Shown: positions 6,635 to 49,414, counted from the first letter of the stretch. The stretch is 64,000 bases of DNA from an uncultured bacterium (GCA_903831305.1 CAIKXE010000002.1:15934-79933); one strand, 5' to 3'. Made by a program: numbers and translations. Notes: generated by a model from the letters alone, not told the origin.

Positions 6635-8377
6635 ATGAGTATATTAGATATTTTAGCCCAAAAAGAAGTAATAAAAAGGGGTGATATTGGCCGGATCAAG
6701 ACTGAGGCTGAATCCGCCGGTGTTCCTCTGGAGCAGATCCTGATAAAATTTGGCGTAAATGAAGATGCTGTTTTAGATGCCAAAGGCGAGTATTATAATA
6801 TTCCGACCAGAAACCTAGAAGGACAGCAGATCCCTTTTTCTATCTTAAAAAATATTTCTGAAGACTCGGCGGTCCATTATAATTTCGTGCCGATCGGGGT
6901 AAAGGACGGGCTATTAGAGGTTGGTATTGTGGATCCTGAAAATATTGAAGCCCGAGATGCGCTAAATTTTATTGCTAGTAAGCTCAATATGCCATTTAAG
7001 CTTTATTTGATCTCAATGGCTGATTTTCAAAAGGTGCTAGATGATTATAAAGGTCTCTCGGGGGAGGTGACAGAGGCCTTGACCGAGCTTCAGTCTGAAT
7101 TAGCCCAAGACTCCGCTAATGTGGAAATCGAGGCCAAGGCGGCAGCTGAGGATCCATTTGAAACCAAGATCGTGGAGGATGCCCCAGTGACCAAGATAGT
7201 ATCAACTATTTTACGTTATGCGACTGAGGGCGGGGCTTCAGATGTTCATATTGAACACATGAAGGACAAGATTCGCGTTCGTTACCGAGTGGACGGCACC
7301 TTAAATACCAGCATTCTTTTACCAGTAGCTGTGCATTCCGCGGTAGTCGCTAGAATCAAGATTTTGTGCAACATGAAGTTGGATGAGAAACGTAAGCCCC
7401 AAGACGGTCGTTTTTCGGCCAAGATTGATGGCCGTAAGATTGATTTTCGTGTTTCTACTTTTCCCACTTTTCATGGAGAGAAAGTCGTGATGAGAATTTT
7501 AGATCAAGAAAAAGGTGTCCAGTCTTTGGACCAGATCGGCTTATCAGAAACTAATTTGGCCTATATCCGTGATGCCATCAGACGGCCTTACGGGATGATT
7601 TTGATTTCTGGTCCAACCGGTTCCGGTAAAACTACCACCATGTATTCTATGTTGAATGAAATTGATAAGGAGGGTTTGAATGTTTTGTCACTGGAGGATC
7701 CGATCGAATATAATATTGAAGGAGTATCTCAATCACAGGTTTTTGCAGACATTGGCTATACTTTTGCCAATGGTCTCCGTACTACTTTGCGCCAGGATCC
7801 AGATGTGATCATGGTCGGAGAAATCCGTGATAAGGAAACAGCTCAGCTGGCGGTGCAAGCGGCTTTGACCGGCCATTTGGTTTTAGCTACTATCCATACT
7901 AATAATGCGGTGGGGGTTATTCCACGACTCATTGATATGGGGGTTGATCCGTATTTGATTGCTCCGACTCTGATTTTAACTATGGCTCAGCGCTTGGTGC
8001 AGACTTTATATCCGGGCACGGGCAAGGCTGTAGCCGTCGATGGTAGCATAAAGGCTATGTTAGATAAGGAGTTTCAGGATTTGCCAGCTGAATATAAGAG
8101 CAAATTACCTAAATTTGAGTCAGTCTATGATCCAGAGGCTTCGGCCATGTGTCCGACCGGTATCAAGGGCCGAATAGCCGTTTTTGAGGCCTTTAAGATG
8201 AATAAAGAGATTGAAAAGCTTATTTTGACAGGTCCGACGGAGGCTAATATTTTTGAATCCCTTCGTAAGCGGGGGATGCTCACCATGAAGGAAGATGCTA
8301 TTATTAAAGCCTTGAATCGGCAAGTACCTTTTAGCGAGGTGGACGGTTTAGGGATGATGGAAGATGAGGAGATCTAG
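6635..8377 (+). CDS. pilB: Type IV pilus assembly (extension) ATPase PilB / GspE family
   Basis: Walker A GPTGSGKTT, ASDVHIE...RYRVDG motif and a C-terminal tetracysteine-like region; 580 aa. Confidence 0.9.
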   Translation: MSILDILAQKEVIKRGDIGRIKTEAESAGVPLEQILIKFGVNEDAVLDAKGEYYNIPTRNLEGQQIPFSILKNISEDSAVHYNFVPIGVKDGLLEVGIVDPENIEARDALNFIASKLNMPFKLYLISMADFQKVLDDYKGLSGEVTEALTELQSELAQDSANVEIEAKAAAEDPFETKIVEDAPVTKIVSTILRYATEGGASDVHIEHMKDKIRVRYRVDGTLNTSILLPVAVHSAVVARIKILCNMKLDEKRKPQDGRFSAKIDGRKIDFRVSTFPTFHGEKVVMRILDQEKGVQSLDQIGLSETNLAYIRDAIRRPYGMILISGPTGSGKTTTMYSMLNEIDKEGLNVLSLEDPIEYNIEGVSQSQVFADIGYTFANGLRTTLRQDPDVIMVGEIRDKETAQLAVQAALTGHLVLATIHTNNAVGVIPRLIDMGVDPYLIAPTLILTMAQRLVQTLYPGTGKAVAVDGSIKAMLDKEFQDLPAEYKSKLPKFESVYDPEASAMCPTGIKGRIAVFEAFKMNKEIEKLILTGPTEANIFESLRKRGMLTMKEDAIIKALNRQVPFSEVDGLGMMEDEEI

Positions 8378-9957: not shown

Positions 9958-11163
9958 ATGATTTTTAAATACAAAGCCATAGACACTAGTAATAATCAGA
10001 AGGAAGGCACCATTGAGGCTGTCAGTTTGGAGGTGGCTATTGCTTCCTTGCAAAAAAGAGGCTTGGTGTTATCAAATATCAGTCCAGTAGAGCAAAAGTC
10101 TTTTTTGGAAAGAAATGTCTCTTTCTTAGAGCATATCTCAAGTAAGGATATCGTCATTCTATCTCGTCAGATGGCTACTTTGTTTGAGGCTCAGGTTTCT
10201 GCACTACGCGTTTTTGAGCTTTTGTCCAGTCAGGCCGAGAAGAATTCCATCAGGCAAAAACTATCTGAAATTGCAGGTGATCTCCAGGCGGGCAGTACTA
10301 TCTCAGATGCTTTAGCAAAGCATCCAGATATGTTTTCACCATTTTATGTGAATATGATAAAGTCTGGTGAAGAGTCTGGTAAGCTTGATCAGACTTTGCT
10401 TTATTTGGCGGATTATCTGGACCGGACTCATGAAGTGACCTCTAAAGTGAAGAGTGCTTTAGTCTATCCGGCTTTTATTGTTTTTACTTTTATTGCGGTG
10501 ATGGTTTTGATGCTGACCGTGGTGATACCAAAAATCAGCGCTATCCTGGTGGATTCCGGTCAAGACATTCCCGTCTATACTAAAGTCGTTCTTGGTATTT
10601 CTGGTTTTTTTGTGAGTTATGGGATGTTTATTTTGATAATCCTCGTGGTTGGCGGCTTTTTCCTCTGGCGTTATATTAAGACCGAGGCTGGGCGGTACTC
10701 CTTTGATTCCTTAAAAATTACCTTTCCAGCGATTCAGGTTCTTTATCGCAAGCTTTATTTGTCCAGAATTGCTGACAATATGAACGTGATGTTACTTTCT
10801 GGTATACCTATTGTCCGGGGCTTGGATCTGACATCCAAGGTGGTGGATAATAAGGTGTTTGAAAACTTAATAAACCAGGTGGTGGAAGATGTAAAGACGG
10901 GCAGTTCTATCTCTGATGCAATGATGAAGTCCGGAGAAATCCCCAGTATTTTTATTGCGATGATCAAGATCGGTGAGGAGACCGGTCAGCTGGGTAATAT
11001 CTTGAAAACCTTGGCTTTATTTTACCGCCGAGAGGTGATGAACGCCATAGACACTTTGGTGGGGCTTATTGAGCCAGTGATGATTGTCCTTCTGGGTTTT
11101 GGAGTAGCCTTCTTACTCGCTTCCGTACTTATCCCTATTTATAATCTATCTGGGGCGATGTAG
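9958..11163 (+). CDS. pilC: Type IV pilus platform protein PilC / GspF family
   Basis: 401 aa, two GspF repeats, three TM segments. Confidence 0.85.
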   Translation: MIFKYKAIDTSNNQKEGTIEAVSLEVAIASLQKRGLVLSNISPVEQKSFLERNVSFLEHISSKDIVILSRQMATLFEAQVSALRVFELLSSQAEKNSIRQKLSEIAGDLQAGSTISDALAKHPDMFSPFYVNMIKSGEESGKLDQTLLYLADYLDRTHEVTSKVKSALVYPAFIVFTFIAVMVLMLTVVIPKISAILVDSGQDIPVYTKVVLGISGFFVSYGMFILIILVVGGFFLWRYIKTEAGRYSFDSLKITFPAIQVLYRKLYLSRIADNMNVMLLSGIPIVRGLDLTSKVVDNKVFENLINQVVEDVKTGSSISDAMMKSGEIPSIFIAMIKIGEETGQLGNILKTLALFYRREVMNAIDTLVGLIEPVMIVLLGFGVAFLLASVLIPIYNLSGAM

Positions 11164-11168
11164 GGCAC

Positions 11169-11290
11169 AACCGCCCCGGTTCGCAAGGCCTCACCACCCC
11201 GCCTTGACCAAGGTGGGGAAAGGGAACTCAAACAACGAGGGTCTGCTTTCTCCTCCTTAGTCAAGGAGGAGTGGCATTCTGATGACGAGG
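11169..11290. repeat. Copy A of the GC-rich dual-hairpin intergenic element
   Basis: About 80 nt are nearly identical to 13503-13585 (CCACCCCGCCTT..AAGGTGGGGAAAGGGAACTCAAACAACGAGGGTCTGCTTTCTCCTCCTTAGTCAAGGAGGAGTGGC). Two perfect hairpins; starts right after the pilC stop codon. Confidence 0.8.
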
Positions 11291-11315
11291 TGGTGTGAAG
11301 TTTTCCACACCTCTC

Positions 11316-11345
11316 ATTGTTGCTTATTTTAGATGTGCTATAATA
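11316..11345 (+). promoter_or_regulatory. Sigma70-like promoter upstream of pilA (TTGTTG, 16 nt, TATAAT)
   Basis: Sequence TTGTTGcttattttagatgtgcTATAAT read directly; about 140 nt upstream of the pilA start. Confidence 0.45.
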
Positions 11346-11482
11346 TCTAGCATAAGCTAATTTTATTTTAGCTTTCCCGAAATTTTTGGTCGATCTCGTT
11401 TTGTCACTCTTACGTAAAGTGGTAAAGGAGTCAAAAATAAAAGGAATTTATAAGGTTTTAGTAATTTAATAATAAATATTAT

Positions 11483-11923
11483 ATGAAAAAAGGTTTTACA
11501 CTTATTGAACTTCTCGTCGTTATCGCTATTATTGGTATTTTGTCTTCTGTCGTTTTAGCTTCTTTGAATTCAGCTAGAAGTAAAGGTGCAGATGCTGCAG
11601 TGAAAGGTAATGTCGCGGGAATCCGGGCACAAGCAGAGCTATATTATGATGATTCTACAAAAGGTAATCAATCATATGGTATCGTTACGGCAAGCTGTAC
11701 AACTGGTATATTCTCAGATTCAAATATTACCAATGCAATTAATGGTGCCAATGCACAAAAAGGGACAGGAACTACCTTGTGTTTTGCTAGCTCCACTGCC
11801 TGGGCAATATCAGTACCTCTAAAAGGTGATGCTGGAAAGTGGTATTGTGTTTCTTCTGATGGTGTAGCAACCACAACATCTGTTGCTGCAGCTATTAGTG
11901 CTTCAGACCCATCTTGTAATTAA
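11483..11923 (+). CDS. pilA: Type IV major pilin (prepilin with class III signal peptide)
   Basis: MKKGFTLIELLVVIAIIGIL matches G|FTLIE with E5. 146 aa with a C-terminal Cys pair. Followed by an intrinsic terminator. Confidence 0.9.
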   Translation: MKKGFTLIELLVVIAIIGILSSVVLASLNSARSKGADAAVKGNVAGIRAQAELYYDDSTKGNQSYGIVTASCTTGIFSDSNITNAINGANAQKGTGTTLCFASSTAWAISVPLKGDAGKWYCVSSDGVATTTSVAAAISASDPSCN

Positions 11924-11943
11924 TTTATCTTAATTTCAAACAA

Positions 11944-11975
11944 AAAACCACCCGAAAGGTGGTTTTTTGTTTGGT
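11944..11975 (+). terminator. Rho-independent terminator after pilA
   Basis: AAAAAACCACCCGAAAGGTGGTTTTTTGTTT: a GC stem with flanking A and T tracts. Confidence 0.8.
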
Positions 11976-11977
11976 GG

Positions 11978-12100
11978 TTTTGAGGCAACCGCCCCTAACC
12001 CCTCCTTAACTAAGGAGGGGAAGAGACGTGACTCTAACTGGGTTACTCTTTCACCTTCCCGCCTCAGTTGAGGAGGGACTGAGGGAAGTTGGCTCTTGGA
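11978..12100. repeat. Copy C (diverged) of the dual-hairpin intergenic element
   Basis: Shares CAACCGCCCCT and the hairpin CCCCTCCTTAACTAAGGAGGGG with the same loop as copy B, plus a second hairpin CCCGCCTCAGTTGAGGAGGG. Confidence 0.6.
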
Positions 12101-12123
12101 GCAGGTTAGTGTATAATGTCACC

Positions 12124-12639
12124 ATGAAAGCAAACAAAGGTTTCACTATTATTGAAGTCCTGGTGGTCATAGCTGTCATTGCTGTATTGACCATCCTTAT
12201 TTTTCCGTCACTGAACAATATTCAAAAGAAAAATCGTGATGCTGAGCGGATTGCGGACATTTCATCCATCCAGCTGGGTCTACTTCTATATTATAGCCAA
12301 CACCCAACAGGGGGTTACCCTGAAGATATTTATAATTCAGATTTTAGTCCCCAATACGTCACGGCCGAGGTTTTGGTCGGTCCCGATGGTAAAAATTATA
12401 CCTATGTCCCTTTGACCCACATTACCACACTAAATCCTAAATGTTCCTATTATCATTTAGGCACAGCCCTAGAGCTTCCGAGCGCTCAGATAGATGCCAA
12501 TGATGATTTTGATTCTACTAATGATCCTGACTCACCCCCACCTATTAAAAAAACATTGTCAGGCGGCTACTTGTATTGTGATCCAGAAAATAACACTGGC
12601 CTAGCTCCTAGCCCTACAAATTATAACGTCCATCCCTAA
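12124..12639 (+). CDS. Prepilin-type N-terminal domain protein (minor pilin)
   Basis: MKANKGFTIIEVLVVIAVIAVL. The track ORF begins at 12028 inside the repeat element, but the pilin-consistent ATG is 12124, 7 nt after a TATAAT. Confidence 0.75.
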   Translation: MKANKGFTIIEVLVVIAVIAVLTILIFPSLNNIQKKNRDAERIADISSIQLGLLLYYSQHPTGGYPEDIYNSDFSPQYVTAEVLVGPDGKNYTYVPLTHITTLNPKCSYYHLGTALELPSAQIDANDDFDSTNDPDSPPPIKKTLSGGYLYCDPENNTGLAPSPTNYNVHP

Positions 12640-12643
12640 TATC

Positions 12644-13477
12644 ATGCCCACTCAAATTTTATTTTACCTTTTAGTTTTTATCTTTGGCACTATTGTGGGG
12701 AGCTTTTTAAATGTCTTGGTTTTGCGTTATGGCACCGGTATCTCACCCATGAAGGGGCGGTCATTTTGCTTTTCCTGCGGTAAAAAGCTAGGGGCTCTCG
12801 AGCTTATTCCGGTTTTCAGTTTCCTTTTCCAAGGCGGTAAGTGTAAGGGCTGTCAGAGTAAAATCTCTTGGCAGTATCCGGTAGTAGAGGCTATTGCCGG
12901 CTTGCTTTTTGTGGCCGTTATTTTACGTTATTCTGGTTTGGTAGGGTTGATCTTTGATTCATGGTTGGTCGTCATTTCTTTGTTAGTCATTGCGGTCCTG
13001 GTGGCTATCACCGTCTATGATATAAAGCACAAAATAATTCCTGATGGGCTGACTATTACCTTTGGTCTTCTGGCGCTCACTAAAATAGTACTAGATTATA
13101 ATCAGCTGACTTTGACTCCAGAGGCCAGCAAGATCCACTTGATTTCATATTTACTGGCTGGTCCGGGTCTGGCCTTACCCTTTTTCTTCCTTTGGTTATT
13201 TTCCAAAGGCCGGTGGATGGGGCTAGGGGATCCCAAACTGATGGTTTGTATGGGCTGGTTTTTGGGGCCGATTATGGGTTTGTCTGCCATTATTTTGGCT
13301 TTTTGGAGCGGGGCGCTTTATGGGCTAGTCCTTCTCGCTCTATCTAAATTCAGTTGGCATGGTCTGAAAATCACCGGCAAAACAGAGGTTCCTTTTGCTC
13401 CGTTCCTGGTTCTTGGCTTTCTTTTAGTCTTTTTCTTTCAGATTGATATTTTGAACCTTGGTTTCTTGTTACCCTGA
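12644..13477 (+). CDS. pilD: Prepilin peptidase PilD (A24 family aspartic peptidase / N-methyltransferase)
   Basis: N-terminal CxxC...CxxC zinc-ribbon-like motif (CFSCGKKL...CKGCQSK), multiple TM segments, 277 aa. Confidence 0.85.
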   Translation: MPTQILFYLLVFIFGTIVGSFLNVLVLRYGTGISPMKGRSFCFSCGKKLGALELIPVFSFLFQGGKCKGCQSKISWQYPVVEAIAGLLFVAVILRYSGLVGLIFDSWLVVISLLVIAVLVAITVYDIKHKIIPDGLTITFGLLALTKIVLDYNQLTLTPEASKIHLISYLLAGPGLALPFFFLWLFSKGRWMGLGDPKLMVCMGWFLGPIMGLSAIILAFWSGALYGLVLLALSKFSWHGLKITGKTEVPFAPFLVLGFLLVFFFQIDILNLGFLLP

Positions 13478-13479
13478 CC

Positions 13480-13597
13480 AACCGCCCCGTCCATCAGAAT
13501 GGCCACCCCGCCTTAACTAAGGTGGGGAAAGGGAACTCAAACAACGAGGGTCTGCTTTCTCCTCCTTAGTCAAGGAGGAGTGGCGAAGCTTTGTGAG
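13480..13597. repeat. Copy B of the dual-hairpin intergenic element
   Basis: Nearly identical to copy A over about 80 nt; begins 3 nt after the pilD stop codon; a TTGTGA-16-TATAAT promoter overlaps its 3' flank. Confidence 0.8.
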
Positions 13598-13621
13598 CCG
13601 AGGTGGTTGTGTTATAATGTA

Positions 13622-14233
13622 ATGATGATATTTAGGAAAAAAGTTAATTCCGGTTTCACCCTTGTAGAGCTTTTGGTCACTATCACTATCTTTACTGTCC
13701 TGACCGGGGTGGTGCTTTTTAGCCAGAGTAAATTCAATAGCTCTATTTTACTTACTAATTTGGCCTATGATATAGCTCTCACTACCCGCCAAGCGCAAAA
13801 TTATGGCATAAATATTAAGGAATATGATGCTGGTGAATTTTTACCATACGGCGTGCATTTTGATTTGTCTAGTACAAAATCTTTTATTTTATTTGCTGAT
13901 CATGGTTATTATAATAATAAAGAAAAGGTTAGTCCTTATGACGGCGGAGTAACTTTTTGTGATTTAGGACACGGTTGTGTAAACCGGTATAATATCCAGG
14001 GTGGTAATTTTATTTCTGCTCTTTGCGTGACGTCTGGAGAAGGGGAAACGTGTGATCTTGAAAAGCTGGATATTATTTTTCAAAGGCCAGATCCTGATGC
14101 CAAGATTTATGCTGGTGGGGTTACTGACACTACTTATTCTAAAGCTGTCATTGTGGTCACGGGTTCTGATGGAAGCACTAGAGAGGTGGTGGTTCAAGCT
14201 AACGGCTTAATCCAAATTGGAGAAAATATATGA
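13622..14233 (+). CDS. Prepilin-type N-terminal cleavage/methylation domain protein (minor pilin)
   Basis: MMIFRKKVNSGFTLVELLVTITIF. A TATAAT at 13612-13617 lies 4 nt from the ATG; the track start at 13580 is inside the repeat. Confidence 0.75.
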   Translation: MMIFRKKVNSGFTLVELLVTITIFTVLTGVVLFSQSKFNSSILLTNLAYDIALTTRQAQNYGINIKEYDAGEFLPYGVHFDLSSTKSFILFADHGYYNNKEKVSPYDGGVTFCDLGHGCVNRYNIQGGNFISALCVTSGEGETCDLEKLDIIFQRPDPDAKIYAGGVTDTTYSKAVIVVTGSDGSTREVVVQANGLIQIGENI

Positions 14234-20965: not shown

Positions 20966-21065
20966 CAATTAATTATTTTTGTGATCTAGTACTTGTTATT
21001 GGTGTATTTTATTGCTCAAATGTAGATTTTGTGTATAATAATGAGGATCTCATTTTTTTGAGATT

Positions 21066-21380
21066 CATCGCCACGCGGGCGTAGCTCAACGGTAGAGCAC
21101 TCCCCTGTAGACGTGCAGCTTTCCGCCGAGATGCGGATTGAAACTCTCTGGGATAACGGTGAAGGCTAAGTTCCATTTTGGAATATGCGAACACCGTGGG
21201 AACTCTTGTGAGATTTGGGGCCATCGGTCCCGAGTGAAACGAGGGAGCGCCGTAGAGACTAGATACCGGAGTACCCTAACTCACTGTGTGTGAAGGGTAA
21301 AGATATAGTCCATGCCACTATGAAAATAGTGAATTAGTGCACGGGAGAGGCCGTGGGGTCAGCACCCATCGCCCGCGCCA
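21066..21380 (+). tRNA. tRNA-Asp (GTC) interrupted by a group I intron; exons 21066-21099 and 21340-21380, CCA encoded
   Basis: 5' exon GCGGGCG-TA-GCTC-AACGGTA-GAGC-A-CTCCC-CTGT; 3' exon CAC-GGGAG-AGGCC-GTGGG-GTCAGCA-CCCAT-CGCCCGC-G-CCA. The spliced anticodon loop would be CTGTCAC, with G10, C38 and G73 as in tRNA-Asp. Confidence 0.75.
21100..21339 (+). ncRNA. Group I self-splicing intron (about 240 nt) in the tRNA-Asp anticodon loop
   Basis: Contains the conserved group I core elements R (GTAGAGACTAGA, 21253-21264) and S (AAAGATATAGTCC, 21297-21309), which pair as P7 (GACTA/TAGTC). The 5' exon ends in U and can pair CUGU with the intron GCAG at 21106-21109 including a U-G wobble (P1). The intron ends in G. 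There is a P9-like hairpin CCACTATGAAAATAGTG. Confidence 0.75.
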
Positions 21381-21383
21381 GTA

Positions 21384-21406
21384 AAAGCCCTGAATAAGGG
21401 CTTTTC
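21384..21406 (+). terminator. Hairpin with flanking A/T tracts directly after tRNA-Asp
   Basis: AAAAGCCCTGAATAAGGGCTTTT. Confidence 0.5.
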
Positions 21407-21409
21407 TGT

Positions 21410-21587
21410 TGCGCGGGCGAAGCAAGCAAATGATTTTGCTTGCGTTGGGTTGCTGACCGGCGGAGCCAGATTTTTTCAGTAGAAAAAATAGGTGAGCCGG
21501 TGTCCAACCCGAGCCGAGCGACGGCGAGGGGAGAGGTGCGGACAAGCACCCACATTGTTTTGTGCGAGGGAGAGTCCATCGCCCGCG
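21410..21587 (+). ncRNA. Structured ncRNA-like element (about 178 nt) closed by a tRNA-Asp acceptor-like stem; identity unknown
   Basis: The 5' end CGCGGGCGAAGC and the 3' end GGGAGAGTCCATCGCCCGCG copy the tRNA-Asp acceptor and anticodon-stem sequences but lack D and T arms. The interior folds into at least four hairpins. It is followed by the terminator at 21591-21625. Confidence 0.45.
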
Positions 21588-21590
21588 GTT

Positions 21591-21625
21591 AAACCACCCC
21601 AGAAGGGGTGGTTTTTGTTTTTTAA
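21591..21625 (+). terminator. Rho-independent terminator
   Basis: AAACCACCCCAGAAGGGGTGGTTTTTGTTTTTT. Confidence 0.85.
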
Positions 21626-22107: not shown

Positions 22108-23699
22108 ATGTATTCTCTTTTGAAAAAATCATTAAAAAAAACATTCTCTATCCTTTTTGGTTTCCAGTTGTTATTAATCTTAATATTAGGGATTTTAATT
22201 TTTGTTTTATATAAAAATCAGGGTAATTTGGCAAAAAGCCGGGATAATCAGTATGCTTCATATCAGTTGGCTGACCAGCTACGCCAAAGCTCGGATGATC
22301 TTACGCGTATGGTTAGAACTTATGTAGCCACCGGTAATCCTGAGTTTGAGAGGGAATATTGGGCCGTTTTGGATATCAGGAATGGTAAAATTCCTCGTCC
22401 GGATGATTACGATAATATTTATTGGGATTTTGTTTCCGCCACTGGTCAAAAACCACGCGCTGATGGAACCGCCGTTTCTCTGTATGATTTGATGGTTAAA
22501 GAGGGTTTCACTGAAGAAGAATTAAATAAACTATCTTTGGCTAAGAAAAATTCTGATGGCTTAGTAAGGGCAGAGACTGTGGCTATGAACGCCATGAAGC
22601 GGTTATTCGTTTCCGTATTGACGGTATGCTGCGCCTCGCCGGTTCGGTGACGATGGAGTATTATGAAAATGTTTTAAATCGCATAAAGATTCAGTCAAAC
22701 TTGCGCACCGATGAGCACTTCTCACCTCAGGATGGAGCTATCCGTTTTATAAATAAGGATTCATCAGTAGATTTGCGTGTTTCTATCGCCCCGACCCTTG
22801 ATGGTGAGAAAGTCGTAATCAGGATTTTAGCAGAATATGTTAAGGGTTTAACCTTTGTGGATTTAGGTTTTTCTGATTATCATATCAAGCTGATTGAAGA
22901 GGCCTCTAAGAAGCCCTTTGGTATGATTTTGGTTTCCGGGCCAACCGGTTCTGGTAAAACCACATCTCTCTATGCTTTGATAAAAAAGTTGAATACTCCA
23001 GAAGTAAATGTCACCACTATTGAGGACCCAGTAGAGTACCGGATGTTTGGAGCTAATCAGATTCAAGTCAATCAAAAAACTAATTTAACTTTTGCCAAAG
23101 GTCTCCGGGCAATTGTTCGTCAAGACCCCAATGTCATTTTGGTCGGAGAAATACGTGATGGAGAAACTGCCGAAACGGCTGTAAACGCGGCTTTAACCGG
23201 ACACTTATTACTTTCTACTTTTCATGCTAATGACGCTGCTACTAGTATTCCTAGATTGCTAGAAATGAATATTGAGCCTTTCCTTTTAGCTTCCACTTTG
23301 GAGCTCATTATCGCTCAGCGTTTGGTCCGCCGGGTTTGTGAGTCCTGCCGTTATGGCTATAAAGAAAAGATATCAGCCATGAAGGAAACATTTCCACAAG
23401 CAAAGGACTATTTTGCGGGGACTGAAATTACTCTGTATAAGGGCAAGGGCTGTTCTACTTGTAATGGGACTGGTTATAAGGGTAGAACCGCCATTGTGGA
23501 GATGATCAATGTCACAAGGGCAATTAAGGAGTTGATTAATAACAAGCCTTCTTCCGAGGAGGTGTGGAAGTTAGCTAAAGCCGAGGGGGCTAAGTCACTC
23601 TTTGCTGACGGAATAGAAAAGGTGAAGATGGGCGTGACTACCCTAGAAGAGGTGATCCGAGTGGCCTCACCAGGTGAGATAGTTGATTTTAAAATTTAA
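22108..23699 (+). pseudogene. Chimeric, frameshifted GspE/PilB-family ATPase: TM + CHASE3-like sensor segment (22108-22650, frame 1) joined out of frame to an ATPase core (22557-23699, frame 0)
   Basis: The ATPase frame opens right after a stop at 22554-22556, directly at the conserved HEAVIRFRIDGML motif. It carries Walker A GPTGSGKTT, the Asp/His boxes and a C-terminal CxxC...CxxC, but lacks the N1/N2 domains. The upstream frame encodes a TM segment plus a segment resembling sensor-domain consensus (YVATGNPEFEREYW). Confidence 0.55.
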
Positions 23700-39371: not shown

Positions 39372-39440
39372 TCATATCTTTGTCCGCTTGTCTTGGACGA
39401 GCGGATTGTAGGTTTGGCTATTTTTATTGAAACAAAAGAG

Positions 39441-41135
39441 ATGCCTTTAACACTAGAAAAATTAAAAGAAATACTAGTTTCGGGCAACTATGTCAATGAA
39501 CAAAGTTTGGAAAATGCGGCGGCCACCGCTTTAAAAAAAGGTGAGCCTATAGAAGTGGTTTTGGTGCGGGAAGAAATGATTAAGGATGAAAAGCTGGGGG
39601 AGGCAATTTCCAAGTATTATAATGTCCCTTATACGGATTTGCGAGAGGAAAATATTCAAAATGATTTATTGGAAATGTTACCTGAGGCGGTAGCTTTGAA
39701 GCAAAATGCCGTGATTTTTGCTAAAACTGATGAGGGTTATAGCTTGGCTACTTCAGAACCGACTAATCTGAGTTTTATAAAAAGCGTGGATCAGTCTACT
39801 GAAGGACGAATCAAGATTTATTATGCTACTCCTTCCGGGATGCTTGAGGCTTTTAAGGCCTATAAGAATAATATCTTCAAGAATGTCTTGGATCTGATTG
39901 AAAACTATAAAGTGCACAATGATGAAAATAGTGTGGTGCTTCTGGTCAATCAGTTTTTGGAATATGCTTATGATAATAATGCTTCAGATGTACACATAGA
40001 GCCTTTGGCAAATAATGTGGTGTCTGTTCGTTTCCGTATTGATGGTATTTTGACTGAGGTGGTGCGTTATCCGATCGAGATGCATGACAAGATTATTTTT
40101 CGGGTAAAGATCATGTCTCACCTCCGTACGGATGAGCGCGGAGCGACGCAAGACGGTCGCTTTGAATATAAAACTGATCAGATGGAGTTTGACGTGCGTG
40201 TCTCTATTTTGCCAATTACTAATGGAGAAAATATTGTTTTTCGTATTCTCTCTGAGCGAGCCAAGAAAGTCCAGCTTGAGGATTTGGGTTTGAGTACTTT
40301 TGACTTAATAAAGGTTAAAAGGGCTATTGCTCAGCCTTATGGTATGATACTCGTGGTGGGGCCAACGGGGGCCGGTAAGACTACTACTTTATATTCTCTT
40401 ATTCAGATTTTAGCCGCCTTACCTATCAGTATTGTGACCATTGAAGATCCAGCAGAATACAGTATTGATAAGGTTCAGCAGATTCAGGTAAATCTGAAGA
40501 AAAATATTACTTTTGCCAATGGTCTACGTTCTATTGTGCGTCAGGATCCAGATGTGATTATGGTGGGAGAAATCCGTGATAGTGAGACCGCCAGTATTGC
40601 AGTGAACGCCGCTATGACTGGTCACCTTTTGTTTTCTACTTTGCATGCCAATGATTCGGCCACTATCTTTCCACGTTTGTTTGAGATGGGGGTGGAACCA
40701 TTTTTGGTAGCTTCCTCCATTAACGTGGTAGTAGCCCAGAGACTAGTCAGAAAAGTCTGTCCAAATTGTCGGATTAATTATCCTAAAACAGCGGCTGATA
40801 TCCCAGCCATTTTAGAGCAAGAAAAAACACCACAGTTTAAGGCTATGATGTCTAGGTTTTTTCCTAATAAGGAGCTTAAGGATATCAAGCTTTATCGGGG
40901 AACTGGTTGCAAGGCCTGCAAGCATACCGGTTACTTGGGGCGTATTGCCGTGTTTGAAGTGATGGAAGTGGATGATGATGTGCGAGCTTTAATCAGCGTC
41001 AAATCTTCCTCTTCAATGGTTAAAAATAAAGCCGAAGCCAATGGTATGACGCTTATGTATTACAATGGTTTGGTGCACTTGTTTAATGGTATCACCACCT
41101 TTGATGAATTAGAGGGGCTTTCCAATTTTGATTAA
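39441..41135 (+). CDS. Second PilB/GspE-family pilus ATPase
   Basis: Walker A GPTGAGKTT, ASDVHIEP...RFRIDG, C-terminal CPNC...CKAC zinc motif. The track start at 39393 was moved to the ATG at 39441 preceded by AAAGAG. Confidence 0.85.
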   Translation: MPLTLEKLKEILVSGNYVNEQSLENAAATALKKGEPIEVVLVREEMIKDEKLGEAISKYYNVPYTDLREENIQNDLLEMLPEAVALKQNAVIFAKTDEGYSLATSEPTNLSFIKSVDQSTEGRIKIYYATPSGMLEAFKAYKNNIFKNVLDLIENYKVHNDENSVVLLVNQFLEYAYDNNASDVHIEPLANNVVSVRFRIDGILTEVVRYPIEMHDKIIFRVKIMSHLRTDERGATQDGRFEYKTDQMEFDVRVSILPITNGENIVFRILSERAKKVQLEDLGLSTFDLIKVKRAIAQPYGMILVVGPTGAGKTTTLYSLIQILAALPISIVTIEDPAEYSIDKVQQIQVNLKKNITFANGLRSIVRQDPDVIMVGEIRDSETASIAVNAAMTGHLLFSTLHANDSATIFPRLFEMGVEPFLVASSINVVVAQRLVRKVCPNCRINYPKTAADIPAILEQEKTPQFKAMMSRFFPNKELKDIKLYRGTGCKACKHTGYLGRIAVFEVMEVDDDVRALISVKSSSSMVKNKAEANGMTLMYYNGLVHLFNGITTFDELEGLSNFD

Positions 41136-47549: not shown

Positions 47550-48812
47550 ATGAAAAAAAGAGGGTTTACATTACTGGAGGCGGTTTTATATCTGGCGATC
47601 GCTGGGGTGGTCATCTACTTTATCAGCGGGTTTGCGTTCAACGCCATTTTTGGTAAAGCCAAGATTGAATCCATCCAAGAGGTGAGTGAGGGTAGCCGGT
47701 CCGTGCTGGACCAGATCAGTAGCGCCATCAGTAATTCTTCTGAGATCAATGGTTTGGAGGTGGACGTTCCGCCAGGGGAAACTGTTCCTTGGTATGATGT
47801 CTCTTGGATCTATCGAAAAAAGATTACTATTGATAAAACCAAGGTACCTAATACTGATCAGACTAATTTTCCGGTGTTGGTGTCACTCACTGGTCTCTCA
47901 AATATAAATGCAAACGGTACCGATATTAGATTCACTGATTCAACCGGTACTGGAGAACTAGCTAGAGAAATTGAATCATATTCCGCTGGCACATTGGTGG
48001 CTTGGGTCAAAGTGCCCGTACTTTCTACTTCTGCCAATACGGATATTTATATGTATTATGGCTCTTCGGGAGCCTCAGAGCCTTCGCCAAGATCGGCCTA
48101 CGGTTCACAAAAAGTTTGGGATGATGGTGGGAGTAATTATTTTAAAGGCGTGTGGCACTTAGCCGACCCGACAAATCCAGTTGATTCTACAGATGCGAAT
48201 AACGGGACAAACAGTGGATCGACAGCTACGGTTGGTCAGGTTGATGGCGGTGCATATTTTACTTCAGCAAATTATATCTCTCTTGGAGCATCAAATTTAT
48301 TTACTCCAACAACAGCATCAACTTTAAGTTTTTGGGTCAAAACATCCAACACGCACTACCAAAGATTATTTGTTTTTGAAAGGGCGTCTGGTTCATCAGC
48401 TATGGCTTTAAATATTGCAGTTAGTACTGGCGCCGGTGACGATAATAACGGGAAACCTTATGCTTTTTATCGCAATAGCTCAGATATATTGCTTTCAATG
48501 ATTGGTCCGTCGTCAATTGCTGATGGCAACTGGCATTACTTATCATATACTATTAATAATACAGTGGGCAGTTTATATGTCGACGGAATATCAGCTGCAA
48601 CTGCCAGTGATATTAGCGTTTCAAAAACTTTCAATTTTTCGAGCGATAATGCTCTTATTAACTATTTTACTAGCAATGGCCTTAATCCGGGATATCTCGA
48701 TGAGTCCAGATTTTCTAACACTGCCCGCTCGGCGGATTGGATAAAAACAGAATACAATAACCAAAGTTCACCAGCGACTTTTTACACCGTGGGGTCTGAG
48801 GAGACACCCTAG
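47550..48812 (+). CDS. Prepilin-leader protein with DUF2341-like + LamG-like module (420 aa)
   Basis: MKKRGFTLLEAVLYLAIAGVVIYF. Its WIYRKKITIDKTKVPNTDQTNFPVLVSL...DIYMYYGSS...ARSADWIKTEYNNQSSPATFYTVGSEETP parallels the C-terminus of the 1208-aa protein. Confidence 0.8.
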   Translation: MKKRGFTLLEAVLYLAIAGVVIYFISGFAFNAIFGKAKIESIQEVSEGSRSVLDQISSAISNSSEINGLEVDVPPGETVPWYDVSWIYRKKITIDKTKVPNTDQTNFPVLVSLTGLSNINANGTDIRFTDSTGTGELAREIESYSAGTLVAWVKVPVLSTSANTDIYMYYGSSGASEPSPRSAYGSQKVWDDGGSNYFKGVWHLADPTNPVDSTDANNGTNSGSTATVGQVDGGAYFTSANYISLGASNLFTPTTASTLSFWVKTSNTHYQRLFVFERASGSSAMALNIAVSTGAGDDNNGKPYAFYRNSSDILLSMIGPSSIADGNWHYLSYTINNTVGSLYVDGISAATASDISVSKTFNFSSDNALINYFTSNGLNPGYLDESRFSNTARSADWIKTEYNNQSSPATFYTVGSEETP

Positions 48813-48814
48813 TC

Positions 48815-48940
48815 AACCTCTCCCGCCAGCCGACTGGTGACCTCCCCTCATCTGATGGGGGGGGTGCGGAGAGTAACGTCTTCTCCCTCACATTAGTTAA
48901 GGGGAGGGTGTCGTTCTGACGACCGGAGAGGTTGTGTTTG
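48815..48940. repeat. Copy D (diverged) of the GC-rich multi-hairpin intergenic element
   Basis: Outer 10-bp stem CAACCTCTCC...GGAGAGGTTG encloses the hairpins CCCCTCATCTGATGGGGGG and CCCTC...GAGGG. Starts 3 nt after the upstream stop; a TATAAT lies 8 nt before the next gene's GTG. Confidence 0.55.
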
Positions 48941-48979
48941 TGTGTTGGTTTTGAGAGCGGATGTGGTATAATTTAAAAT

Positions 48980-49414
48980 GTGGAGAAGTATTTTAATCAG
49001 CGGAAAAATAAGCAAAGGGGTTTTTTGGTCTTGACCCTAGTGCTTCTGGTCTGTGCCACGGTTCTCGCTATCGCTTCTGGTATCTTTCTCCGTTCCATCG
49101 GCAAAGTAAGTGAGACCGGTGATTCAGAAAACTCTTTTAAATCCTGGAGTGCGGTGAATGCTTGCGGGGAATATGCCCTGGGGCGTATGGCCTCTATTGC
49201 TAGTGGTCAGCCAGGCTGGGCCTATCAAGGAAATGAGCTTTTGACCATCGGGGGTGAGACATGCTATATTTATGGCATAATTACCCAGGGAGAAAGCAAA
49301 ATCATTCAGGCTTCAAGTACGGTTTCCAATTTTACTAAAAAGATTGTTATTGAAGTGGCCACTAATACTCCCAAGGTCGTGATTAGTTCCTGGCGGGAAG
49401 TGGCGGATTTTTAG
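48980..49414 (+). CDS. PilX-like pilus protein with N-terminal TM (144 aa), GTG start
   Basis: RGFLVLTLVLLVCATVLAIASGIFL. The start follows the ORF track (GTG at 48980), 8 nt after TATAAT. Confidence 0.5.
   Translation: MEKYFNQRKNKQRGFLVLTLVLLVCATVLAIASGIFLRSIGKVSETGDSENSFKSWSAVNACGEYALGRMASIASGQPGWAYQGNELLTIGGETCYIYGIITQGESKIIQASSTVSNFTKKIVIEVATNTPKVVISSWREVADF

Follow-up and report, generated by a model that had tools for sequence, protein, structure and literature searches.

The 64,000-nt stretch of DNA analyzed here at its full length (GCA_903831305.1, CAIKXE010000002.1:15934-79933; hereafter the window) comes from an uncultured bacterium and carries, at pilus loci, four copies (A to D) of a structured, GC-rich intergenic element. 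Taken together, our results make it likely that these copies are gene-less DNA elements resembling miniature inverted-repeat transposable elements (MITEs), that they fall in the triplex-motif class of bacterial repeats and are linked to the DUF559 family, and that they are not RNA terminators. The host belongs to the Patescibacteria (Paceibacterota), in which homologues of its prepilin peptidase (66-78% identity) number in the hundreds, and two groundwater-type metagenome contigs (L010, L011) are 99.97-100% identical to the window.

Architecture of the Four Copies

A covariance model (R1), run over the whole window with filters off, found four copies and no more, the next matches being ordinary terminator hairpins at 18 bits or less. 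Copy A (11166-11298; 101 bits) lies between the pilC stop codon (TAG, 11161-11163) and the major-pilin promoter, and copy B (13477-13611; 129 bits) between the pilD stop codon (TGA, 13475-13477) and the extended -10 of a minor-pilin gene. The degenerate copy C (11980-12110; 58 bits on the + strand and 50 bits on the - strand) is located between the major-pilin terminator (11936-11974) and the second pilin gene, and the diverged copy D (48812-48936; 87 bits) between the stop codon of a 420-aa pilin-like gene (TAG, 48810-48812) and a pseudopilin-like gene (GTG 48980). Since both strands are scored by R1, the element is a quasi-palindrome. A preliminary description of these copies had given A and B as about 95% identical over 80 nt; their near-identity holds, although the figure is 98% over 82 nt (11194-11275 versus 13503-13584), and sequence comparison bears out that C and D are diverged. 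The CAACC motif begins at 11168 in A, 13479 in B and 48814 in D, so that these three start within the reported 0-5 nt of a stop codon, whereas C starts 12 nt 3' of the pilin terminator. Similarly, the GC content of roughly 65% applies to the best 80-nt window alone (66%) and not to the whole elements (54-60%), in a stretch with a mean of 41.7%. A TATAAT does lie 4-8 nt from the start codon in B (13613-13618; ATG 13622/13625), C (12112-12117; ATG 12124) and D (48967-48972; GTG 48980), but in A it is found at 11340-11345, 137 nt 5' of the pilin ATG (11483).

Read on its G-rich strand, each arm of the element consists of a pyrimidine strand, a 4-nt loop, a purine strand, a second loop (loop 2) and a G-rich third strand in which the order of the purine strand is mirrored, with G facing G and either T or A facing A. 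Since the second arm is an inverse copy of the first, each DNA strand has one triplex-capable arm. The two 9-bp hairpins described previously (CCCCGCCTT/AAGGTGGGG and CTCCTCCTT/AAGGAGGAG) are present, as is the long-range pairing CAACCGCC/GGTGGTTG, which D retains through two double changes (CAACCTCTCC/GGAGAGGTTG); the ability of the outer segments to pair mutually accounts for this long-range stem and for the four-way junction seen earlier. What the dual-hairpin account omitted is the defining feature of the element, the mirror-repeat third strand.

Our own triplex scanner, operating with 8-nt stems, returned six matches in the 64 kb, all of them in A, B and C and one per strand in each (A, + 11249-11293 and - 11169-11217; C, + 12057-12089 and - 11987-12019; B, + 13558-13606 and - 13480-13526), compared with a single match in 20 shuffled controls (about 0.05 per shuffle). 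Copy B, inspected by hand, gave nine of nine allowed triads between the purine strand of its second main hairpin, AAGGAGGAG, and GAGGTGGTT, while D matched on the - strand only, provided that two triad mismatches were permitted. Among the metagenome copies found by the model, the triplex motif occurred in 48 of 48, and on both strands in 33 of them.

A structural alignment of 16 full copies from at least six lineages is consistent with a proposed structure built from an outer and a central stem together with two main and two loop-2 hairpins. This four-way structure was paired in 89.6% of cells, versus 40-62% when the 3' partners were slid, with double-sided changes in 19 pairs, and the loop-2 hairpins covary fully (TCCAT/ATGG, GTCTAT/ATAGAC, GGTTAT/ATAACC and GGCGC/GCGCC). 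Fold energies were lower than those of shuffled sequences by 3-5.9 standard deviations on the + strand and by 3.4-5.5 on the - strand, and the minimum-free-energy fold of D is a clean four-way junction (z = -5.9). The corresponding fold of A to C, one long hairpin, was considered less likely than local hairpins, given that the loop-2 segments of A (beta and alpha-prime) cannot pair mutually; the alpha segment folds alone and covaries, like the loop-2 hairpins of other copies. Loop 1 measures 4-8 nt. Loop 2 is short in C (3-5 nt) but spans 13-21 nt in A and B; in D it is 20 nt long and folds into a hairpin of its own. In these last three copies loop 2 thus exceeds the published range of 1-6 nt, and for this reason we call the element a variant of the triplex-motif class; the variation is local, loop 2 being 3 nt in Escherichia coli and enlarged to a hairpin of 13-21 nt in A, B and D.

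Single arms in Hymenobacter and Pontibacter retain the leader in spite of having no Watson-Crick partner. Leader position N1 compared with hairpin position N4 in mirror fashion gave counts of 94 for A/T, 43 for G/G and 1 for A/G, which are confounded by lineage, and in both copy D and the relative L001 leader and hairpin have changed jointly, to CCTC. The leaders kept by single arms, the mirror covariation and the joint changes fit a mirror-repeat constraint better than plain pairing. With 197 arms pooled, the central stem position was non-Watson-Crick in about 30% (T.C 23, C.A 23, G.T 10), and a central mismatch seems to be tolerated or even preferred.

Occupied and Empty Sites in Related Genomes

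Alignment of orthologous junctions shows the copies to be insertions that are lacking in close relatives. In L001, L003, L007 and L009, 26 nt separate the pilD stop codon from the next start codon and the spacer consists solely of a TGnTATAAT extended -10; as the pilD site is empty in these four genomes, copy B represents an insertion of about 130 nt, with the stop codon on one side and a pre-existing promoter on the other. Copies B and C are missing at the orthologous sites of the closest relative, L009 (PilD 95% identical at the amino-acid level and 85% at the nucleotide level), and from other relatives examined too, and R1 found no element over the pilus loci of L003, L005, L007 and L009. 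The pilC junction is empty in L001, L003, L005 and L007, with a spacer of 3-5 nt in L003 and L007, and filled in the window genome, in L191 and in L154/L169, the arm types differing among the filled lineages. Orthologous pilin promoters keep their extended -10 without any element.

At the pilD-stop/promoter junction that holds copy B in the window, L005 has another, compact triplex motif (10833-10869), which reads TCCCCC-ttgtca-GGGGGA with G-rich flanks, in cyanobacterial style. This suggests that the junction has been struck repeatedly.

Association With a DUF559 Endonuclease-Like Gene

Two arms enclose a 115-aa open reading frame (ORF) in Pontibacter (L012, L028, L108, L043), in Saccharibacteria (L069) and in L161, which is located on the same contig as the relative L003. 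In the cassette, which measures about 490 bp, an arm and an inverse arm flank a TGnTATTAT promoter with a leaderless 115-aa DUF559 gene; in L161 the order is arm, TGCTATTAT, leaderless GTG start, DUF559 and arm. The ORF matches Pfam DUF559 (PF04480) with E values of 1e-32 to 1e-36 and is YcjD/Vsr-like, with a PD-(D/E)XK fold; its nearest solved structure is PDB 3HRL, an "endonuclease-like protein," and D53, E64 and H70 are invariant in the DUF559 alignment, with D66 nearly so. DUF559, Vsr and I-Bth0305I form one PD-(D/E)XK clade (PMC3424549), and I-Bth0305I is a homing endonuclease (PMC3239194).

The first 58 nt of copy A are 93% identical to an arm of the L069 DUF559 element, and nucleotides 3-57 of copy B match arms in L161 and L069 at 93-95% identity. 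With arms at 93-95% identity over 55-58 nt, the window copies are gene-less miniatures of the DUF559 cassette. Complete gene-less copies also occur immediately 5' of DUF559 genes in L001, L047 and L115, and among the matches listed a DUF559 gene was present at 12 of about 120 genome loci and 6 of 120 metagenome loci, nearly always touching an arm.

The association was also approached from the protein side, using eight DUF559 loci from a plasmid collection that were chosen by protein search alone (Picosynechococcus, Synechocystis, Pseudanabaena, Deinococcus, Azospirillum, Sphingomonas, E. coli and Neisseria). Triplex motifs were found within about 100 nt at all eight, often on both sides and with lineage-specific sequence, whereas shuffled sequences gave about 0.05 per locus. 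The DUF559 gene of E. coli K-12 is ycjD; the motif TMECO no. 9 (1,351,204-1,351,239) lies in the fabI-ycjD spacer, and a further arm overlaps the ycjD stop codon. The searched literature on DUF559, ycjD or triplex motifs held no report of a connection between DUF559 and the repeats.

Downstream of ycjD, a segment of E. coli K-12 (1,351,204-1,351,420; L260 2205-2420) repeats in degenerate form the final ~50 nt of ycjD along with its arm; motif no. 9 comes next, and the segment looks like the scar of a cassette turnover.

Distribution of the Family and Preference for Pilin Genes

A degenerate search pattern drawn from the four window copies, with a metagenome variant limited to the Patescibacteria-type leader, matched at least 120 loci in a species-representative genome collection and at least 120 loci in a metagenome collection, which shows members of the family, as recognized by this pattern, across many phyla. 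The hosts among the matches listed include Hymenobacteraceae (with many copies per genome), other Bacteroidota, Acidobacteriota, Competibacteraceae, Burkholderiales, Nitrospirota, cyanobacteria and several classes of Patescibacteria, and the copies in Saccharibacteria match A or B arm for arm. A viral collection of 2.9 million contigs yielded a single match, on the basis of which phages were rejected as the vector.

In a betaproteobacterial metagenome-assembled genome (L085 820-1023), one 5' arm is followed by three tandem units of CCCCTCCTTACCAAGGAGGGGTGGCGCCGAAGGCGACGGGGCAATTTT, each corresponding to the second main hairpin (H2), the loop-2 hairpin and part of the third strand, which indicates that arms can amplify in tandem.

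As previously described, all four window copies are positioned upstream of pilin-like genes, although 10 other pilin-like genes of the window (14 of its 68 genes are pilin-like) have no copy; the association has p ~0.002, or 0.04 if the three clustered copies are taken as one event. The further suggestion that the element targets pilin loci finds weak support. For 66 distinct copies in other Patescibacteria, 6 of 55 abutting starts belonged to pilin-like genes, against 15 of 379 other genes (odds ratio 3, Fisher p = 0.04), and the copies are not always next to pilin genes, since about 89% flank unrelated genes, among them secY, ribosomal-protein genes and tRNA-synthetase genes. The pilC-to-pilin junction itself has been repeatedly occupied.

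Proposed Mechanism and Alternative Explanations

We propose that the element acts at the DNA level, where it would probably adopt its fold transiently, as single-stranded or cruciform DNA, while the DNA is being replicated or repaired, and that it may be spread or maintained by the DUF559 nuclease, which could either nick the arms and mobilize the element or home into the center of gene-less copies. Copies would persist at harmless insertion sites. In a compact genome these may come down to the short gap that separates a stop codon from a promoter of the extended -10 type, which is independent of a -35; pilin-like genes, with their own leaderless promoters, would supply many such sites, and the effect on pilin expression is probably small. 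The relevance of the recurrent central mismatch to a Vsr-like enzyme is speculation. A wider proposal, which we advance tentatively and regard as somewhat doubtful, is that DUF559/YcjD might be the dedicated nuclease of such triplex repeats across bacteria, the two jointly forming a minimal mobile element in which the folded arm would be recognized, perhaps at its central mismatch, and in which gene-less copies would be non-autonomous progeny or homing targets that in Patescibacteria land preferentially at stop-codon/promoter junctions, including those of pilus genes.

Several points weigh against the reading of the copies as DUF559-linked, MITE-like triplex elements. To our knowledge, neither cleavage nor mobilization activity has been demonstrated for any DUF559 protein, and we know of no lone 115-aa nuclease that acts as a transposase. 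A tblastn search found no DUF559 gene in the 64-kb window, and neither a target-site duplication nor a defined target sequence emerged when filled and empty pilD and pilC junctions were compared. The association with DUF559 could be passive, with repeats and a selfish gene gathering in the same permissive spots. The preference for pilus loci is real but modest, and it is unexplained. G.U-compatible pairs in A and B and slightly better + strand folds leave some room for a role as RNA. Moreover, the effect on triplex stability of the 13-21-nt loop-2 hairpin in A, B and D, which sets them apart from the E. coli motif, is conjectural, and for the E. coli motif no triplex was detected in duplex DNA or in vivo (PMC4666352).

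An RNA module in the 3' untranslated region of the upstream gene, with the four-way junction serving as a terminator, an insulator or a 3'-exonuclease block that stabilizes the pilC, pilD and pilin mRNAs, would explain the strong + strand RNA folds (z = -3 to -5.9), the G-U pairs on the + strand in A and B, and the start of the element 0-5 nt past stop codons, a position matched in other genomes by 20 of 62 abutting gene ends lying at -5 to +7 nt of the element. Closeness to stop codons, however, follows from original spacers of 3-14 nt. Although an intrinsic terminator scan gave marginal sites touching the 3' edges of A and D (a weak terminator-like site over the 3' end of D and another 3' of A), it found none in B and C; the elements have no U-tract, and the pilin gene before C already has a classic terminator, which the scan recovered at 11936-11974. 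Both strands score with R1, and the order of the arms is inverted between A and B though both flanking genes are on the + strand, so that arm orientation is not kept relative to transcription. The central mismatches (T.C 23 and C.A 23 versus G.T 10) are not an RNA signature, single arms retain an unpaired leader, a purine-motif triplex is impossible in RNA (PMC4666352), and the E. coli members, in the summary of Hoyne and Maher (2002) given in PMC4666352, showed no promoter or terminator activity. We therefore consider an RNA module unlikely, and the terminator, insulator, mRNA-stabilizer and regulator-site roles suggested in the preliminary description are disfavored by the absence of a U-tract, the arm orientation and the mismatch pattern. 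Its remaining option, a REP-like (repetitive extragenic palindromic) mobile repeat, comes nearest to the evidence of empty orthologous sites, occurrence in many phyla and arms in common with gene-carrying elements.

The occurrence of all four window copies before pilin-like genes, the filling of the pilC-to-pilin junction in at least three lineages and the 3-fold enrichment in Patescibacteria could also point to a pilin-specific cis-regulatory DNA through which expression of the pilin genes would be coordinated, whether as an upstream promoter element or as a site bound by a regulator or nucleoid protein. The elements had been described as ending at or over a -35 region, and -35-like hexamers do lie within B and C (in C, TTGGCT at 12089), but in those two only. 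With about 89% of the copies in other Patescibacteria flanking unrelated genes, the family abundant in unrelated contexts in Bacteroidota, Acidobacteriota and Proteobacteria, the orthologous pilin promoters of relatives keeping their extended -10 without the element, and 10 further pilin-like genes of the window lacking a copy, such a function is very improbable. Slightly less improbable, but still far from likely, is an adaptive recombination hot spot, in which triplex palindromes would be retained in pilus loci because local destabilization of the DNA speeds the shuffling of pilin genes. Triplex-motif loci of E. coli are more rearranged between strains than control sites (PMC4666352), pilin genes vary in number and sequence among relatives, and the pilC and pilD junctions are filled by different variants in different lineages; against this, the gene order of the locus is conserved in all relatives with or without the element, the pilin enrichment is weak, and no sign of rearrangement break-points was seen at the copies.

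If the DUF559 link is functional, it may explain the spread of long-puzzling repeats, would give a role to YcjD, a conserved E. coli protein of unknown function, and would reduce a 30-year-old repeat puzzle to a simple experiment. The BoxC/PIT/triplex repeats, recognized in E. coli since the 1990s and present in hundreds of genomes, have had no known function, partner protein or spreading route. Relative to the searched literature, our results are new in showing that such repeats reach Patescibacteria, where their long loop would put them beyond the published search rules, that gene-less copies have arms in common with a DUF559 cassette, and that DUF559 genes occur amid triplex motifs in cyanobacteria, Deinococcus, alpha-, beta- and gamma-proteobacteria and Patescibacteria. 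They also serve as a warning for annotation, as GC-rich structured modules in compact genomes should not be taken for regulatory RNAs.

Parts of the Copies and Neighboring Features

In copy A, the leader, or third-strand complement (CAACCGCCCC, 11168-11177), is followed by the loop-2 segment beta (11178-11196), hairpin H1 (11197-11205/11210-11218), the central linker (11219-11249), hairpin H2 (11250-11258/11263-11271), the loop-2 hairpin alpha-prime (11272-11286) and the G-rich third strand (GAGGTGGTG, 11287-11295). Copy B has the same succession of leader (13479-13488), loop-2 hairpin alpha (13489-13505), H1 (13506-13514/13519-13527), linker (13528-13558), H2 (13559-13567/13572-13580), a second loop 2 containing GCGAAGC (13581-13599) and third strand (GAGGTGGTTG, 13600-13609). 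The leader of copy C (CAACCGCCCC, 11986-11995) is separated from H1 (11999-12007/12012-12020) by a first loop 2 of only TAA (11996-11998), without an extra hairpin and like E. coli type A, and H2 (12058-12065/12070-12077) is followed by loop 2 ACT and the third strand (GAGGGAAGTTGG, 12081-12092). Copy D comprises a leader (CAACCTCTCC, 48814-48823), a first loop-2 hairpin (48824-48839), H1 (about 48841-48868), H2 (about 48882-48908), a second loop-2 hairpin (GTCGTTCTGACGAC, 48910-48923) and a third strand (GGAGAGGTTG, 48925-48934).

Outside copy B, the minor-pilin gene has a host extended -10 promoter and leaderless start on the + strand (13610-13627; TGTTATAAT at 13610-13618, ATG 13622/13625), and the same TGnTATAAT with ATG is also found in relatives without the element. 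The minor pilin-like genes start 3-7 nt 3' of such a TGnTATAAT extended -10 (12110-12126, 13610-13627 and 48964-48982), an arrangement kept at the pilD-pilin junctions of L001/L003/L007/L009, and this spacing implies leaderless mRNAs without a Shine-Dalgarno sequence. The major pilin is the sole pilin-like gene in the window with a long leader, of about 135 nt (11349-11482). This leader, whose conserved core contains TTTTTGGTCGATCTnnTTTTGTCACnCTTACGTAAnGTGAnAAAnnAGTCAAAAA, is strongly conserved in relatives (L001 8255-8390, L003 8765-8905, L005 8815-8940, L007 8895-9030) though their PilD is just 66-78% identical; it had no match in Rfam, and it is a candidate cis-regulatory leader RNA.

The window and five relatives have a pilus gene order in common (pilM...pilB, response regulator, pilT, pilC, pilins, pilD, minor pilins and ligase). 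The window as a whole contains three paralogous pilus gene clusters (6635-8377, 22626-23699 and 39393-41135, with their neighbors), whose PilB/PilT-like ATPase genes have stretches in common that are 61-77% identical (families D1, D5 and D6), and a total of 13-14 pilin-like genes. Apart from the pilus genes, an ORF-free, GC-rich stretch of about 560 nt (21056-21614) lies 3' of tRNA-Met, with its own promoter (TGTGTATAAT, 21031-21040) and terminator (21594-21617). It opens like the 5' half of a tRNA (GCGGGCGTAGCTCAACGGTAGAGCAC), and its segment 21084-21332 scored 46.5 bits (E = 1e-10) with the group I intron model, slightly below the gathering score of 50; ARAGORN made no tRNA call at this stretch, which is probably a tRNA gene split by a group I intron.

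Comparison With Known Systems

The whole window gave no Rfam 15 match at gathering thresholds, and at E values up to 10 just chance-level matches of microRNA type. Integron attC sites were rejected, as the family consensus ends in ...GGGGTGGTG without a GTTRRRY core, and no integrase-like ORF was noticed near the copies, though no systematic search for one was made. The segment CUGAUGA in A and CUGACGA in D recalls a hammerhead ribozyme, but this reading was rejected because B and C do not conserve the segment. It makes up the loop of a variable hairpin, that of loop 2, and is inverse to the alpha arm of B. A mimic of Shine-Dalgarno or anti-Shine-Dalgarno sequences (AAGGAGG and CCUCCUUA in the stems) was discarded, given that Bacteroidota carry the family in equal abundance and that the triplex design explains the purine/pyrimidine pattern. 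A pilus-linked DNA-uptake sequence was rejected on account of the cross-phylum spread and the lack of a pilus link in most copies.

Vsr-like homing endonucleases of the I-Bth0305I family, both free-standing and intron-borne (PMC3239194; PMC2677866), resemble the present system in that a small nuclease gene sits at the exact center of a conserved target-like sequence and gene-less, "empty" versions also exist; they differ in that DUF559 has no known cleavage and the "target" is a multi-copy repeat instead of a single conserved host gene. In common with REP/REPIN-RAYT systems are palindromic doublets able to fold as a long hairpin, one single-copy protein gene amid repeats with gene-less doublets scattered in intergenic DNA, and likely action on folded single-stranded DNA. 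However, the arms have no GTAG head, no RAYT gene of the Y1 HUH type was seen, the flanked gene being always DUF559, the linked protein has a PD-(D/E)XK fold, and the design is kept across phyla while REPINs are lineage-specific. The likeness to MITEs lies in ends common to a longer ORF-carrying element (the A and B arms at 93-95% identity over 55-58 nt to the one-ORF elements L161 and L069), multiple copies per genome, insertion polymorphism and intergenic location, whereas a target-site duplication is absent, the ORF is a 115-aa Vsr-like nuclease that matched no transposase family, and the arms are structured, with a hairpin and a mirror repeat.

The triplex literature (Holder et al., 2015; PMC4666352) was reached through a relative of the arm sequences in E. 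coli, a literature search with the arm sequences of the window genome having returned primer matches only. The E. coli triplex motif (TM), also known as BoxC or potential intrastrand triplex (PIT), consists of a pyrimidine strand, a loop, a purine strand, a 3-nt loop (TTA/CCG) and a mirror G-rich third strand; circular dichroism and nuclear magnetic resonance on oligonucleotides show that it folds, when single-stranded, into a triplex of high stability, its commonest form is "type A mm," with a central mismatch, and it is absent from phages and plasmids, marks strain-variable loci and, in the 2015 survey, had no linkage to mobile elements (PMC4666352). The window copies differ from it in stem sequence (CCCCGCCTT/AAGGYGGGG here versus CCCTCTCCC/GGGAGAGGG in E. 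coli), in their host, a patescibacterium of 42% GC, and in having a linked gene, since published work reports neither such a gene nor a connection with mobile elements; besides, the loop range of 1-6 nt in the ITxF database (PMC4666352) does not accommodate a loop 2 extending to 21 nt. The E. coli copy scored just 14.6 bits with R1, so that the design is the same while homology to the E. coli motif is not established. On the other hand, the three-block design, defined by a stem of 6-15 nt with at most one mismatch and by G.G-C, A.A-T or T.A-T triads, is found on both strands of A, B and C and, under relaxed settings, on one strand of D, and copy C has TTA/TAA as loop 2. The copies are likewise G/C-rich, multi-copy and strictly intergenic, often occur as inverted pairs with one motif per strand, frequently have a lone central mismatched triplet, vary in presence between close relatives and are not carried on phages. 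Judged by this shared design, the copies are best placed in the BoxC/PIT/TM class of intrastrand triplex motifs (class II, purine motif), of which they represent a long-loop variant.

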